This document shows, piece by piece, positions 33,001 through 39,000 of a stretch of 45,979 bases of DNA. The DNA comes from Candidatus Latescibacterota bacterium (lineage in GTDB: Bacteria; Latescibacterota; UBA2968): positions 1 to 45,979 of the forward strand of contig JAYODI010000043.1 in NCBI GenBank assembly GCA_038279365.1. Reading direction: 5' to 3'. Position 1 is the first letter of the stretch, and every line of letters begins with the position of its first letter. A program made the position numbers.

Positions 33001-36000
33001 TATAGAGGTTATTGCACAGCGGTTGAAAATGGGGTGGATGGAGAACCGACTTTCAAAAGACCGTGTTAAAACTTATTTGGATGGTTTGGATGCAACAGGT
33101 GCTTGGGCAGATATTGATTACAATGATGTCTCACGCACACATTGGCAACCCGCTGAGCATCCTGTACGTTTGTCGCAACTGGCAGAAGTGTATGGTGCAG
33201 AAAAGGATAAAAAAGTTAAAGATGCGGTTTTACGCGGTTTGCAATTTTGGGTGCAACAAGATCCACAAAGCGACAACTGGTGGTGGAACTGTATTTCGAG
33301 CCCACGCGATTTGAGCAAGACATTGCTTTTGATGGGCGATGCGGTGCCACCCGATTTGGTAGCGGCAACGGCAAAGTTGGTGCATCGCAGTACGTTTAAA
33401 CGCACGGGTGCCAATTTGACCAATGAAGCGAGTAATTTGTTGGTGCTGGCATGTGCAACACAAGATGTGGATTTGTTGCAAGCGTCCATTGGTCATTTGA
33501 CGGGTGAAATACGAGTGGCCATTGGGGAAGAGGGCATTCAGGTGGACAACAGCTTTCACCAGCATGGTCCTCAACTGCAAATGTCGAGTTATGCCGAGGT
33601 GTTTGCCCGGGATGCCACCGAACATGCCTTGCTTTTTGAAGGCACCCAGTTTGCGTTGTCTGCTGAGCAAATTTTGGCCCTCTCGGCATTTGTGCGTGAA
33701 GGGCAACAGTGGTTTGTGTGGGGGCATCGGGTAGACTTTCATGGCATGGGGCGTGGTGCGGGGCGCACGGGAGGCACAGGTGGCGCGGGTGGCATACGTG
33801 TGATTGCCGAACGTATGGCCAAGATCGATCCCCAACACAAAGCAGAATATGATTCTTTTGTAGCGCGCATGAAAGATGAGATGCCGCCCAATGATCAGGC
33901 CCCCAAAGGCAATCGACATTTTTATCGGTCGGATGTGATGGTTCACCGCACAGAAAAATTTCACACATCGGTTCGTATGCATTCTACGCGTACCTATGCG
34001 TGTGAAGTGCGTGTGAATCGCGAAAATTTGAAGGGGTATCATTTGTCTGATGGTACCTATTTTGTGATGCAAAGTGGCGATGAATATTTGGAAATTCAGC
34101 CGGTGTGGGATTGGCGCAAGTTGCCAGGAGTGACTTATTTTGAGACGAACGATCCATTTCCTTATGGTGCAGATGTGTCTCAGCGTGGTCAGACCGATTT
34201 TGTGGGCGGTGTGTCCGATGGACAGGTGGGTGTGACGGCGATGGATTGGGTGAAGGATGAGGTGGTTGCACGCAAAGCATATTTCTTTTTTGAGCAAGGT
34301 TTTGTGTGTTTGGGGGCGGGGATATCAGGTGATCGAGACGAAAATGTGATTACCGGTATGAATCAATGTTTGCTCAATGGAGATGTGTTGGTGTTGGGGG
34401 CGTCACTTACGGCTATGGGGCGTGGTCGAATGGTGGGCGGCGATGTGCGCGGTGTGTATCACAATGGGGTGGGGTATTATTTTTTAGATCAGCCAAAAGT
34501 GGTGATACGTTCAGATGCCCAACGGGGCAGTTGGAAAGATTTGGAAGAAAACAGTACGCGCAAAGAGCAAATACAAAAAGATGTGTTTGCACTGTGGATG
34601 GATCATGGTGAACGGCCTTTGGATGATACATATGCTTATGTCGTGATGCCGGGTATGGTACGTGATATGTTTGAGAGCGAGGCAGATCGGTTGCCATTTA
34701 CCATATTGAAAAATACGCCCAGTATCCAGGCCATTGAATTTGCAAATCAAAATTTGGCGCAAGTGGTATTTTTTGACGCGGGTCAGGTGCAGGTCTTAGG
34801 CGGTTTGGATGTGACTGTGAGTGCGCCCTGTTTGCTTATGCTTAGACGAGATGGAAATCAATGGACCCTGTCGGTTGCTGATCCGACACAAAAACTCACT
34901 CAGATTCAAGTGACCTTAAATCGTTTATTGATGGGTGACAATGTTGTTGGAGATGATGACAACTGTGTGGTTTTGGTTAACTTGCCTCAAAATGAATGGG
35001 CAGGTAAAACCGCGACGGTTTCATTGTTACAACAGTAATCTGCAACGGTCTATCGGATACGCTTTGTGTGATGCACCTGAACCCAAAGTCTTTGGGGAGT
35101 GTCAATGGCTCAGCAAAAAATCGACCCCATCATTGATTTGTCAAAAAAACCAAAGCAGCACATAACATGGCGTGCGGTGGTGTTGGGCACACTTACGGCA
35201 GCAGGTTTAAACATTTATAGCAACTATGCGGGTTTGATTTTGGGTTCTGCATCGTTGGTAAAGTCGCAATTGCCCATTGCGATGTTGATGCCGTTTGTGG
35301 CTTGGATTGGTATCAATTTGATTTTGAAGTGGGTGTGGCCACGCATGGCCTTGTCTTCGGCTGAGTTGTTGGTTATTTACAGCATGTCTTGGCTTGTGGG
35401 CACGGTGTCGGCCAGTGGGTGGACAGCCTATTGGGGTGGGGTGTTGAGTTCCCCCACGTTTTTTGCATCGCCAGAAAACCGATGGGAAGAAGTGTTGTTT
35501 GATGTGTTGCCGTGGTGGATGTTGCCCCATGGCCAAGATGTGATTCGACCCTTTTATGAAGGGTTGCCCGATGGGGCAACGATGCCGTTTTTTGGCTGGA
35601 TTCCCACGCTTTATTGGTGGTTTTCTATTTCTTTGGCATTGGTGTTGGCTGGATTTTGCATTTCGGTGTTGTTTCAAAAACAATGGGAAGAGTCTGAGCG
35701 GTTAACGTTTCCATTGGTGGCTTTTCCTGTGGCATTGACCGAAGGGTTTGATGAGGGCAATCGGTTGCCCAAGATTTTTCGTGACCCATTCTTTTTGGTT
35801 GGATTTGGGGTTGTATTTGGTGTGTATGCTTGGAATATGGTGGGTTATTTTGCACCCAATTTGCCACGTATTGGTTTGTTTGACGATTATTTGACCAAAG
35901 AGGTGGCATTTGCACGGTCTTTTCCACCTATTTATTTGCGCGTTTTACCCCCTGTTATTGGGTTGATGTATTTGTGCAATTTGGATATTCTGTTCAGCTT

Positions 36001-39000
36001 TTGGGTGTTGCGTTTGGTGGCCATTTTGCAAGAAGGTCTGATGGCACGTGTGGGGTTTGCGGTGGGATATGCTGGGCAACAGGCCGAAGCGGCTGAGATT
36101 ATGACGTTGTCTTCACATGGGGCTATGGTCTTTTTGGCGGTATATTCGGTGTGGGTGGCGCGTCATCATTTGCTTCGGGTGTGTCAGGTGGCTTGGCAAG
36201 GTGTGCGGGTGCCCGATGATGATGGCATGGTTCCATATCGGTTGGCTTTGTTGGGTTTGTTTTTTTCGACGATTTATATTTTGGGTTGTTTTGTGGGGAT
36301 GGGGTTATCGTGGTTTTTGGCCATATTTCAATTGGGGCTGATGTATGTGGGGTATTTTGTGGTGGCCAAATATACGGCGGTAACAGGGTGTTCCTATTTG
36401 TTTCCTGTGGGCACAAAGGGCGGCGGCATTATCGAAAGCTTGGCTGGCACGTCTACATTAACGCGGGCCAATATGGTGGGGTTGGGGTTGATTAATTCCA
36501 GTGCATTTTTTGGCAATGCGCGTATTCCTGCGTGGCCTGCATTGCCCCATCATTTGCGCTTTTTTTCAGGTTTACAGGCACGTAAGGGATGGGCGTTTTG
36601 GACAGTGGTTTTGGCTTTTTCGGCTGGGTTTTTGGGGTCGTGTTTGTTTATTATTTATTTGGGCTATCACTTTGCTGGGCAAAATTTGGGGCTAACGGGT
36701 TTTCGAAGTGCCAATATTTCAACCTATGACAAGATGGTATCGGCCATAGTGAATGCCGACAAGACAGTGTTTGATCCTGCAAAGGGTGGGGTGTGGTTTT
36801 TGGGTGGGGCGGTTGCTTGGGGTTTGATGATGTTGCGAAATCGTTTGGCGTGGTGGCCGTTGCATCCTTTGGGATTTGCTTTTCAAACGATGAGTGGTTC
36901 TAAGGTGTATGCTTTTAGCATTTTTTTGGTGTGGGCAGCCAAGTCTATTATTTTGCGTGTGGGTGGAATTTCCTTATACGAACGTGCACGGCCCTTTTTC
37001 TTTGGGTTGGTGGTGGGGTATGTGGTGGCACTGGGCACATCTTCGGTTGTGGATTATGTGTGGTTTCCCGATGATGGGCACAATTTGCATAATTGGTGAG
37101 AAATAATAAATGGCAAATGGCAGACGGCAAATGGCAAATGATGTGAATTCTTAAGTGAGGGTTTTATGAAGCGATTGTTTTGTGTGATGATGGTTTTGTT
37201 GATGGGAAGCGGTATTGTTGGTGCGCAGAATCAGGAATTGACGGTGGCAAAGTCGAGGAGTTATGAAGCCATTGATTTGCGGCCGTTATTAGATAGTATG
37301 AGCCATTGGCGCAAACGGTATGGACGAGACCGCAACGATCGCATGTATTCTCCCACGCAAATTGTGTTGATTGCCGAAAACATATTGGGTTTGCAAAATG
37401 AAGATGGTGGATGGCCAAAGGATGTGGATTGGCAGATTGATATTGACCCGGATACCGTTCGGGCGATTAAAGGTGCGCGTGCTTTGCGCAGTACGTTGGA
37501 CAATCGCAGCACCTATACACATGTGGCCTATTTGTCTAAAGTTTATACCGTGACCCAGTTGGAACGTTATCGCGAGGCTGCTGAGCGAGGGTTGGATTAT
37601 ATTTTTCGCGAACAACGTCCCAGCGGTGGGTGGCGTGGGTGGGATGTGGATGCCATTACCTATAATGATGATGTGATGTTGGGCACGATGCGCACGATGC
37701 GCGATATTGTCAATGGTGAGCCTCATTTTGCGTGGGTGGATGAGGCCTATCGTGCAAAGGCGAAAATGGCACTTGATCGGGCCATTGATGTGACACTTAA
37801 ATGTCAAATTGTGGTCAACGGCAAAAAGACAGCGTGGTGCCAACAGCACGATCATGAAACGTTGTTGCCCACCAAGGCACGCAGTTATGAATTGCCATCT
37901 ATTTGCCCTGGCGAAAGTGCGGGTATTGTTTGGTTTTTGATGGATATTGAAAACCCATCTGCAGAAGTGGTTGATGCCATCGATCATGCGATGGCCTGGT
38001 TTGAAGTGTCTAAGATTGAGGGCATTCGGATTGAGACAGTGGAAATTGATGCAACGCGCTTTAAAAATCATACAGCAAAAACCGATCGTGTGGTGGTGCA
38101 AGACCCCAATGCGCCACCTTTGTGGGCGCGTTTTCATGAGATAGATACTTTTCGCCCATTTATGTGTAACCGCGATGGTGTGGTGGTGTATTCATTGGCT
38201 GAAGTTGCTTTGGAACGGCGTACGGGATATGGGTGGTATGGAGGCTGGCCAAGGCAATTGATAGAAAAAGGATACCCTGCGTGGAAAAAGCGCATAGGAC
38301 GCATGGATTAATGGTGCGTGATGTGGTGGGTGATGATGCCAAGTTGGTAGAAACAGCATTGCGGTTTGTGATTGCACACAAGTCTAATCCCGTGGTGATT
38401 CCTGGCGCTACGAAGGTGTCGCAAGTAGAGCGCAATGCTTGGGCTGGTGCTCAGTTGATGGATACTGAGTTATACAAAAAATTGTGCGTTGTGTGATGTA
38501 AAGGGGCCTGCAATCATCACAACAAAGTATGTGTATGTAAAAGTGGCCGATTTTATGATCGGTCACTTTTGTTTATGGGTTTGACGCTGGTGGGATTGTG
38601 CTATATTTTTAGCCTGTTTACCGCAAACCTCAATAAAGGCCATGATATGAATATTTTATTGATTACAAGTGATCAGCAACGCCCCGATGCGATCGGGTGT
38701 TTGAATGCTTCGGTTCAAACACCTCATTTGGATCGGTTGGCGAAAGAAGGGATTTTGTTTGAGCGGGCTTATACGGTGAATCCTGTGTGTACGCCTTCGC
38801 GGTGTAGCATATTGACGGGGCAGTATCCTTCTCGACATGGGTGTTTTCATGTCGGAACCAATTTGCCCACTGACTATGGTCCAACAGTGGCCCATCAATT
38901 GTCCGACGCAGGATATGCCACGGCCCTGTTGGGTAAGGCGCATTTTCAAGCATGTAAAGATCCTACAAGTTTTGAGGCAGCACCGCATATACACGATTTG

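Follow-up and report, generated by a model that had tools for sequence, protein, structure and literature searches.

The window, a 45,979-nucleotide stretch of Candidatus Latescibacterota DNA, encoded a 664-amino-acid polytopic membrane protein (35105..37099, + strand) of the DUF6785/DUF6784 family, which predicted fold and profile comparison place within the OPT/YSL superfamily as a divergent branch in prokaryotes, distantly related to the transporters with which plants absorb iron chelates. Taken as a whole, we think it probable that DUF6785 and DUF6784 are two Pfam pieces of a single inner-membrane secondary transporter of ~650 amino acids, predicted to have expanded as a general importer of varied organic solutes.

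The open reading frame matched PF20581 (E 6e-88) and PF20580 (E 3e-24), and a newly built alignment of 128 rows gave an AlphaFold model of similarly high confidence to that reported in the survey's finding (pLDDT 95.3, pTM 0.94). Foldseek at E ≤ 1e-3 returned 7WSR (1.2e-9) and 7WST (5.1e-9) alone (TM 0.61/0.67), both barley YS1, as the survey had also found. YS1 was likewise far ahead in VIA-align against 48,161 chains, scoring Z 20.5 over 550 aligned residues (rmsd 4.4) where the runner-up reached Z 5.5, in line with the earlier comparison. By both methods the YS core and scaffold fold spanned the whole chain of the predicted model, and a helix break at residues 99-106 coincided with the unwound TM2 of YS1 when mapped transitively through profiles. 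The two halves of the protein did not align as an internal repeat by profile (probability <1%).

Homology to OPT was also detected at the profile level, where hhalign matched DUF6785 to 13 OPT proteins with a probability of 92.7% (E 4e-7, 427 columns), against ≤0.7% for 11 unrelated membrane families and two reversed alignments. One protein (L074:3475-5226) matched both DUF6785 (E 3e-104) and OPT (33.3 bits; PF03169 cut-off 25.8) over overlapping residues, and was the only one of five OPT-hinted DUF6785 proteins rescanned to pass the cut-off; one Atlas cluster was labelled DUF6785 at 95% and OPT at 11%. The earlier absence of OPT Pfam matches in 20 members held for this genome, where the window protein gave no OPT match by Pfam or in a genome-wide search at E ≤ 10, but some members in relatives do match OPT by sequence. 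Nor did the window protein match TIGR00728 or TIGR00733 in NCBIfam; six DUF6785 proteins had no NCBIfam model, and the DUF6785 profile found no PDB sequence at E ≤ 10. A fold match to YS1 only, together with profile homology, thus identifies DUF6785 as a divergent OPT/YSL branch, strengthening the assignment made from structure in the survey.

Residues that bind Fe-phytosiderophore in YS1 (F130, Y451, K482 and Y551) were not conserved, the equivalent segments being variable under a transitive mapping that is possibly off by a few residues. Among the 28 paralogues of the genome, pocket-equivalent segments were the more variable, their top residue having a mean share of 0.30-0.53 against 0.58 for two stretches of scaffold. 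K/R/H occurred within residues 46-55 in 27/28 and K/R at 472-474 in 22/28. The acidic triad of YS1 (D446/D490/D494) was not kept either: E/D occurred near 426 in 21/28 and near 470 in 13/28, and the window copy had no acid in the triad-equivalent segments, so proton coupling draws no support from these residues.

In Latescibacterota, a phylum without cultured members to which the breakdown of algal polysaccharides has been ascribed, DUF6785 was present in 140 of the 151 genomes sampled. As claimed earlier, every genome of the same order carried it (52/52; 30+22). All 28 PF20581 matches in the present genome (the window copy and 27 paralogues) were open frames. This bore out the reported parity with MFS_1, whose 34 matches represented 29 called genes. 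DUF6785/DUF6784 form the largest membrane-protein paralogue cluster of the genome. Pairwise identity averaged 34% and peaked at 76% in a tandem pair, so the copies are not contamination duplicates; similar counts in single-contig genomes also led us to reject contamination. In six genomes counted in full there were 16-28 DUF6785 matches each, versus 2-6 for SBP_bac_1, 0-3 for DctM and 2-6 for SSF among classic importers. The branch comprised 8,793 clusters at 50% identity (E ≤ 0.001), and database labels place it also in Armatimonadota, Poribacteria and Bathyarchaeota.

In the window, a PL8 polysaccharide lyase gene (32882..35038, + strand; PF02278/PF08124/PF02884) ended 66 bp upstream of the transporter; its start is inferred and, if at 32882, would give a signal-peptide-like N-terminus. 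A pectate lyase of family PL10 with a signal-peptide-like N-terminus (37166..38311, + strand; PF09492, E 9e-81) began 66 bp downstream, and was followed on the same strand by an aldo-keto reductase gene remnant (38311..38493; the final 61 of 310 residues, 74% identical by tblastn at E 1e-24), a sulfatase (38647..40128; PF00884) and a PhyH-family dioxygenase (40197..40946; PF05721), one of ~126 in the genome. Read from its inferred ATG, the sulfatase had no signal-peptide-like start and is likely cytoplasmic. PL10 lay downstream of the transporter at all four orthologue loci reaching that side (L078, L141, L142 and L143), three of which may come from one organism, and in relatives an entire aldo-keto reductase gene followed it. 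PL8 was not found beside 85-94% orthologues at the loci compared, and conserved CAZyme linkage was confined to the DUF6785-PL10 pair among 85-98% orthologues. Promoter and terminator scans gave counts at chance (14 vs 13.9; 14 vs 9.5). One RNA run (5% of words present) placed four 151-base pieces on PL8 and the sulfatase and none on the transporter, which is uninformative either way. From its flanking genes, the most likely role of the window copy, to which we give about an even chance, is import of short uronate oligosaccharides released by the exported lyases, plausibly with pectin-derived oligouronates as predicted cargo.

Extending this role to the whole family, as a dedicated oligosaccharide importer of the lineage paired with polysaccharide lyases, appears unlikely. 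We reproduced the reported adjacency, with 5/28 copies beside a lyase gene against 2.5% of all genes (p 6e-4), 0/29 for MFS and 0/14 for SBP/TRAP/SSS, and it persisted when the window copy was left out (4/27, p 1e-3, 50-gene set). Because the lyase-adjacent copies sit in separate clades, the pairing arose more than once. At a distance of up to three genes, MFS genes (5/29) were as near to lyases as DUF6785 genes (6/28). However, the four lyase families giving the signal were first noticed beside DUF6785, and three families added later (20 genes) adjoined 0/28 copies. Across 10 relatives, none of 90 full-length copies adjoined a polysaccharide lyase (2/90 had one within two genes), and copy number was uncoupled from the number of lyases of the four families searched (21/0 in genome G003, 23/1 in G049 and 25/13 in G007). 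G007 had one copy within 5 kb of a lyase against 0.65 expected; three lyase-adjacent copies had counterparts there at 54-84% identity, none of them with a lyase within two genes. Lyase enrichment beside DUF6785 is limited to this genome, and the CAZyme linkage across genomes that marks a polysaccharide-utilisation-locus importer was not found for the family. The survey's proposal of inner-membrane oligosaccharide importers is therefore supported for some copies only. An oligosaccharide role would also be favoured by glycosidase-like genes within two genes of 20/90 copies in relatives (a grouping partly by weak matches) and by sulfatases equally near 9/90, both as raw counts. Neighbours there further included aldolases, amidohydrolases, PhyH and TonB-receptor modules. 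In the present genome, pooled catabolic families (PhyH, GFO, sulfatase, enolase-like and AKR) adjoined 3/28 copies versus 12%, and we discarded a general catabolic enrichment; many copies were located among housekeeping genes. A crude test found signal-like stretches in 23/70 lyase-like genes and 9/88 sulfatases, by which most degradative enzymes look cytoplasmic.

Unlike the lyases, a giant membrane protein and a second OPT-fold family, here family B, form the context that recurs across families. The ~1500-aa giant combined PA and degenerate M28 domains, a MacB-like periplasmic domain and an FtsX permease, with matches to FtsX and MacB_PCD. In 75 aligned sequences the zinc ligands of M28 metallopeptidases (HxD, DD, EE) were absent, replaced by YYD (from HHD, with Y288 in 75/75), AE(M/Q) and (A/G)H(H/F) (EE becoming xH). 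An adjacent ABC ATPase would be expected of a MacB/LolCDE-type (type VII) ABC system. The small gene inside the module encoded a TPR protein in four low-copy genomes, which removed an ABC ATPase as its candidate product; at one locus (L077) a LolD-like ATPase lay two genes away. Family B had no Pfam model but showed the YS1 fold (E 3e-11) and profile matches to DUF6785 (94.7%) and OPT (94.2%), with 1 to at least 6 matches per genome and PDZ insertions in some proteins. It adjoined the giant at every complete locus examined and occurred in the same 140/151 genomes as DUF6785.

These observations raise the alternative that DUF6785 is at its core one subunit of a larger membrane system, in which the giant would be receptor or partner for DUF6785 and family B, and scattered copies would be spares or would use the partner in trans. 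In its favour, besides the shared distribution of family B and the replaced zinc ligands, three of the four giant genes of the genome adjoined a DUF6785 gene (p 1e-5), the module was no more than three genes away from DUF6785 at two loci of G007 and in G049, G008 (its sole copy), G019, G011 and G005, and one lineage encoded a 2120-aa giant-DUF6785 fusion, whose cluster has 56 members, several of the 15 listed being full-length. Yet only 6/90 copies in relatives and 4/28 here lay within two genes of the module, copy numbers differ about tenfold, and the invariant neighbour of family B in the loci seen was the giant, not DUF6785. The 11 genomes lacking both OPT-fold families belong to one taxonomic family, so their co-absence is one event, and we regard a subunit role as improbable. 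Slightly less credible still is retention of the canonical OPT/YSL cargo of metal chelates, glutathione or oligopeptides. Solutes of these kinds are transported by every characterised relative in the sources consulted (PMC3061005, PMC9691689), some copies lay near peptidases (M1, M81, M19, S9 and M50), and NCBI labels family B 'peptide transporter', although three family B proteins had no NCBIfam model. Against this, the YS1 ligand residues are not conserved, ~11 genomes of the phylum had separate canonical OPT genes (strong matches), and no recurrent siderophore or metal genes were found among scanned neighbours.

If it resembles barley YS1 in mechanism as well, DUF6785 as a general importer would work as an elevator: two re-entrant loops and the broken TM2 would belong to a mobile core domain that moves solute past a fixed scaffold, probably driven by a cation gradient. 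Import is the direction suggested solely by known OPT/YSL members. Gene context suggests that repeated expansion in Latescibacterota produced importers with divergent pockets for varied organic, probably anionic, solutes. Candidates include sugar acids, oligosaccharides that are sulfated or unsaturated, and further small substrates of catabolism, for which DUF6785 would fill in for scarce ABC, TRAP and SSS systems. A more speculative scenario, doubtful as a whole, is that much organic-solute uptake in the phylum, and in the three further lineages named by database labels, runs through DUF6785 and that the ancestral form was a multi-subunit importer. It would have paired two different OPT-fold elevators with a MacB-like protein whose nicalin-like dead-peptidase ectodomain captured substrate, in most cases with no dedicated ATPase; paralogues acting alone would have been recruited later for oligouronates and other solutes.

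Two DUFs thereby gain a predicted structure and a testable role across most sampled Latescibacterota, and the OPT/YSL superfamily gains two branches mostly missed by the Pfam OPT model. Metabolic reconstructions treat DUF6785 genes as hypothetical, so the uptake capacity of such genomes is probably underestimated. As in the survey, no paper on 'DUF6785' was found; searches for DUF6784, PF20581 and PF20580 also returned none, and database curators may have noted the fold. Porters of the ExuT/KdgT/TogT type and the ABC system TogMNAB take up uronates with folds unrelated to OPT, and match the predicted role of the window copy in bringing lyase products across the inner membrane. Uronate uptake in Latescibacteria was assigned to one ExuT-like MFS by Farag et al. 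(2015; PMC4454575), and the available portion of that main text does not mention OPT. Prokaryotic OPT/YSL members were described in 2011 as biochemically uncharacterised, and Gomolplitinant and Saier (2011; PMC3061005) proposed, from gene context, uptake of xylan oligosaccharides for OPT subcluster 4C. Barley YS1 (PF03169) resembles DUF6785 in whole-chain fold, size, TM2 break and profile homology, but differs in its 11-14% identity, its ligands and acidic triad, and the high copy number of DUF6785. Family B shares the fold, phyletic pattern and profile similarity, with fewer matches per genome and a place beside the giant. Bacterial OPT transporters (TIGR00733) are likewise prokaryotic OPT homologues, but in Latescibacterota the canonical OPTs occur patchily and as single copies, whereas DUF6785 forms a far larger branch of its own.

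The gene at 35105-37099 (+ strand) encoded 664 residues, with DUF6785 (PF20581) at 23-525 and DUF6784 (PF20580) at 567-654. Its AlphaFold2 model, from a 128-row alignment, had a pLDDT of 95.3 and a pTM of 0.94. Both Foldseek matches at E ≤ 1e-3 were to the barley transporter YS1 (E 1.2e-9 and 5.1e-9, TM 0.61/0.67), and in a VIA-align comparison with 48,161 chains the top Z was 20.5 (550 residues aligned at rmsd 4.4) and the second 5.5; these values reproduce the figures behind the survey's finding of an OPT/YSL fold. The accompanying claim that OPT (PF03169) is not matched by sequence stood for the window protein (no match in Pfam, genome search or NCBIfam), but failed in relatives. 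Weak PF03169 matches occurred there in 86/151 genomes at E ≤ 0.001, with 39 above cut-off; 12 of these places were fetched and yielded five DUF6785 proteins. On rescanning, the OPT cut-off (25.8 bits) was exceeded by one of the five (33.3 bits); a second reached 17.3, and the remaining three gave no match to OPT. In the Atlas, a cluster of 878 proteins, most of them archaeal, carried DUF6785 in 95% and OPT in 11%; with DUFs skipped, the nearest clusters were auto-named 'peptide transporter' and OPT (scores 0.78-0.80, a lead only). Profile-profile comparison of DUF6785 with 13 OPT proteins gave a probability of 92.7% (E 4e-7), whereas the controls, 11 unrelated membrane families plus two reversed alignments, never exceeded 0.7%. 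From the matches in relatives and the profile-profile result we therefore conclude that DUF6785 belongs to the OPT/YSL superfamily as a divergent branch lying beyond the narrow family, and the fold and superfamily assignment is solid, with very little room for doubt. At L073:3959-7559 in relative G047, an OPT protein that is both short (588 aa) and divergent lay beside Asp/Glu racemase and DUF1177 genes.

All 28 copies surveyed in the window's genome, G000 (6.03 Mb, 98.5% complete, 7.4% contamination), were intact by PF20581, with a mean pairwise identity of 34% (maximum 76%), and indeed about equalled the MFS_1 genes (29, from 34 matches). They formed the largest membrane-protein cluster among 5,036 genes called by a simple purpose-made gene caller. 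PF20581 was present in 140 of 151 phylum genomes, the other 11 being one family, and in 52/52 genomes of the order, as claimed. Full counts gave 16-26 matches in five genomes and 1-4 in another five. In a tree of 132 sequences, the relatives G003, G009, G047 and G049 each had a separate recent expansion, and 39 of 90 copies fetched from relatives adjoined another copy. In G049, a single contig (C1), 21 of 23 matches lay in one ~370-kb stretch spanning the contig ends (~4,040,000-4,077,109 and 1-330,000; loci L080-L090), where repeated sulfatases sit together with enzyme-like families of ~500 aa and ~830 aa that lack annotation. The DUF6785 profile matched 8,793 clusters (50% identity), a figure that counts fragments and distant relatives too, with labels among them of Armatimonadota, Poribacteria and Bathyarchaeota; near homologues of the window protein were labelled Candidatus Latescibacterota. 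Three DUF6785 proteins (P0168, P0203, P0213) had ~200-aa insertions separating the two DUFs.

The survey had read these proteins as the lineage's inner-membrane oligosaccharide importers, 5/28 copies adjoining a polysaccharide lyase against 2.5% of genes. Within G000 that adjacency was confirmed (p 6e-4; 70 lyase-like genes, seven Pfam families), compared with 0/29 for MFS and 0/14 for SBP/TRAP/SSS genes; excluding the window copy left 4/27 (p 1e-3, 50-gene set). Within three genes, the counts were 6/28 for DUF6785 vs 5/29 for MFS. All adjacency matches stemmed from the four lyase families first seen beside DUF6785, and none of the 28 copies adjoined any of 20 lyase genes of later-added families. 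The lyase-adjacent copies were spread over different clades. Enzyme families of G000 were very large (126 PhyH, 93 GFO oxidoreductases, 88 sulfatases, 53 enolase-like, 38 heparinase II/III-like).

The lyase link does not carry over to relatives. Counting the four families, G003 had 21 DUF6785 copies and no lyase, G049 had 23 and one, and G047 had 26 matches and two; in G007, with 25 copies and 13 lyases, one copy lay within 5 kb of a lyase vs 0.65 expected. Among 90 full-length copies of about 120 in 10 relatives (hand-picked regions favouring tandem clusters), none was directly beside a lyase and two had one within two genes, the same span holding glycosidase-like genes for 20 (our grouping, partly weak matches) and sulfatases for nine. 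For three lyase-adjacent copies, the counterparts in G007, at 54%, 62-66% and 84% identity, had different neighbours. Overall, neighbours comprised aldolases, amidohydrolases, PhyH, aconitase X, LarA-like proteins, aminotransferases, peptidases, TonB-receptor/PorV modules and housekeeping genes. A triplet of TonB-dependent receptor, ~700-790-aa unknown and PorV-family gene sat beside DUF6785 in three genomes (L034:12797-19312, L084, L090, L120). A family of nine proteins of ~270-315 aa, all starting with a signal-like stretch and one also matching CBM9, recurred beside DUF6785 in G003 (L092, L093, L095-L098) and is a candidate periplasmic binding partner.

The window copy was flanked 66 bp upstream by a PL8 lyase and 66 bp downstream by a PL10 pectate lyase, both with signal-like N-termini, followed by a sulfatase and then a PhyH gene. 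Six loci held orthologues (85-98% identity); PL10 followed in 4/4 reaching that side (three possibly one organism), and PL8 preceded in 0/5 showing the upstream side, its place taken by enolase-like and UxuA-like genes, with a PL22-like gene in L079. The operon was recently rearranged, since an aldo-keto reductase remnant remains at 38311-38493 where relatives retain the complete gene after PL10. A restriction-type helicase (31033-32721) immediately upstream of PL8 and a stretch of short ORFs with few genes (24830-28009) suggest that the region left of the operon is mobile or rearranged.

A crude test detected signal-like stretches in only 23/70 lyase-like genes and 9/88 sulfatases; it is therefore probable that oligomers need passage across the inner membrane. 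Few classic importers were present in six genomes (SBP_bac_1 2-6, DctM 0-3, SSF 2-6 matches). Oligouronate import by the window copy is plausible by inference, at roughly even odds, and the survey's proposal may stand for some such copies, but with 0/90 lyase-adjacent copies in relatives an oligosaccharide role across the family is unlikely. The best reading, which we moderately favour, is a general importer family with some copies carrying oligosaccharides. Xylan-oligosaccharide uptake has already been suggested for one OPT subcluster, and prokaryotic OPTs were stated to be uncharacterised in 2011 (Gomolplitinant and Saier 2011, PMC3061005); uronate uptake in Latescibacteria was assigned to an ExuT-like MFS (Farag et al. 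2015, PMC4454575). As the survey reported for DUF6785, no paper was found naming either DUF or their Pfam numbers, supplements and database notes lying outside the search; the available part of a 2026 preprint on YSL origins does not mention DUFs, and that of an Amazon-reef Latescibacterota paper says little about transporters.

A minority of copies sat in another module. G000 encoded four membrane proteins of ~1500 aa (giants) that combine PA, M28-like, MacB_PCD and FtsX domains; three of the four adjoined DUF6785 (p 1e-5). At three of the four loci stood family B, a Pfam-less 670-810-aa protein labelled 'peptide transporter' by NCBI, whose model (pLDDT 80.7) matched only YS1 (E 3e-11). Giant and family B modules, often with a TPR gene and DUF6785, lay at L043:3596-10632, L045:2324-6814 and L051:2667-11534 (contigs C125, C129, C52) and at C20:120392-127394. 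The module also accompanied DUF6785 in G007, G049, G008 (its only copy), G019, G011 and G005, with the TPR gene in the last four. A 2120-aa fusion of giant and DUF6785+DUF6784 (P0202; 56-member cluster) recurred in independent contigs, and family B occurred in the same 140/151 genomes as DUF6785, the shared absence being one event. The giant's M28 zinc ligands were replaced by invariant Y288, D289 and H334, and nicalin was among the PDB matches; judged by these residues, the domain would resemble a pseudo-peptidase. At L070:4879-8106 and L071:4986-8213, the OPT-fold proteins of family B were ~1075 aa long and had PDZ domains inserted.

In YS1, the solute site lies between the TM1-H1 loop, unwound TM2, TM9, H6 and H7; the elevator movement is coupled to protons through three aspartates (PMC9691689). 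Mapped transitively through the OPT profile, and so approximately, the pocket elements fell near window-protein residues 42-56, 98-108, 425-437, 464-478 and 528-540, the model showing a helix break at 99-106. Conservation among the 28 paralogues was lower in these segments (0.30-0.53) than in two scaffold stretches (0.58), the value for the whole chain being 0.49. On the same approximate mapping, a basic residue occurred within 46-55 in 27/28 paralogues and at 472-474 in 22/28, and an acid near 426 in 21/28 and near 470 in 13/28; unlike YS1 with its coupling aspartates, the window copy had an acid at neither position. The variable pocket, basic residues and patchy acids fit diversified, perhaps anionic, substrates.
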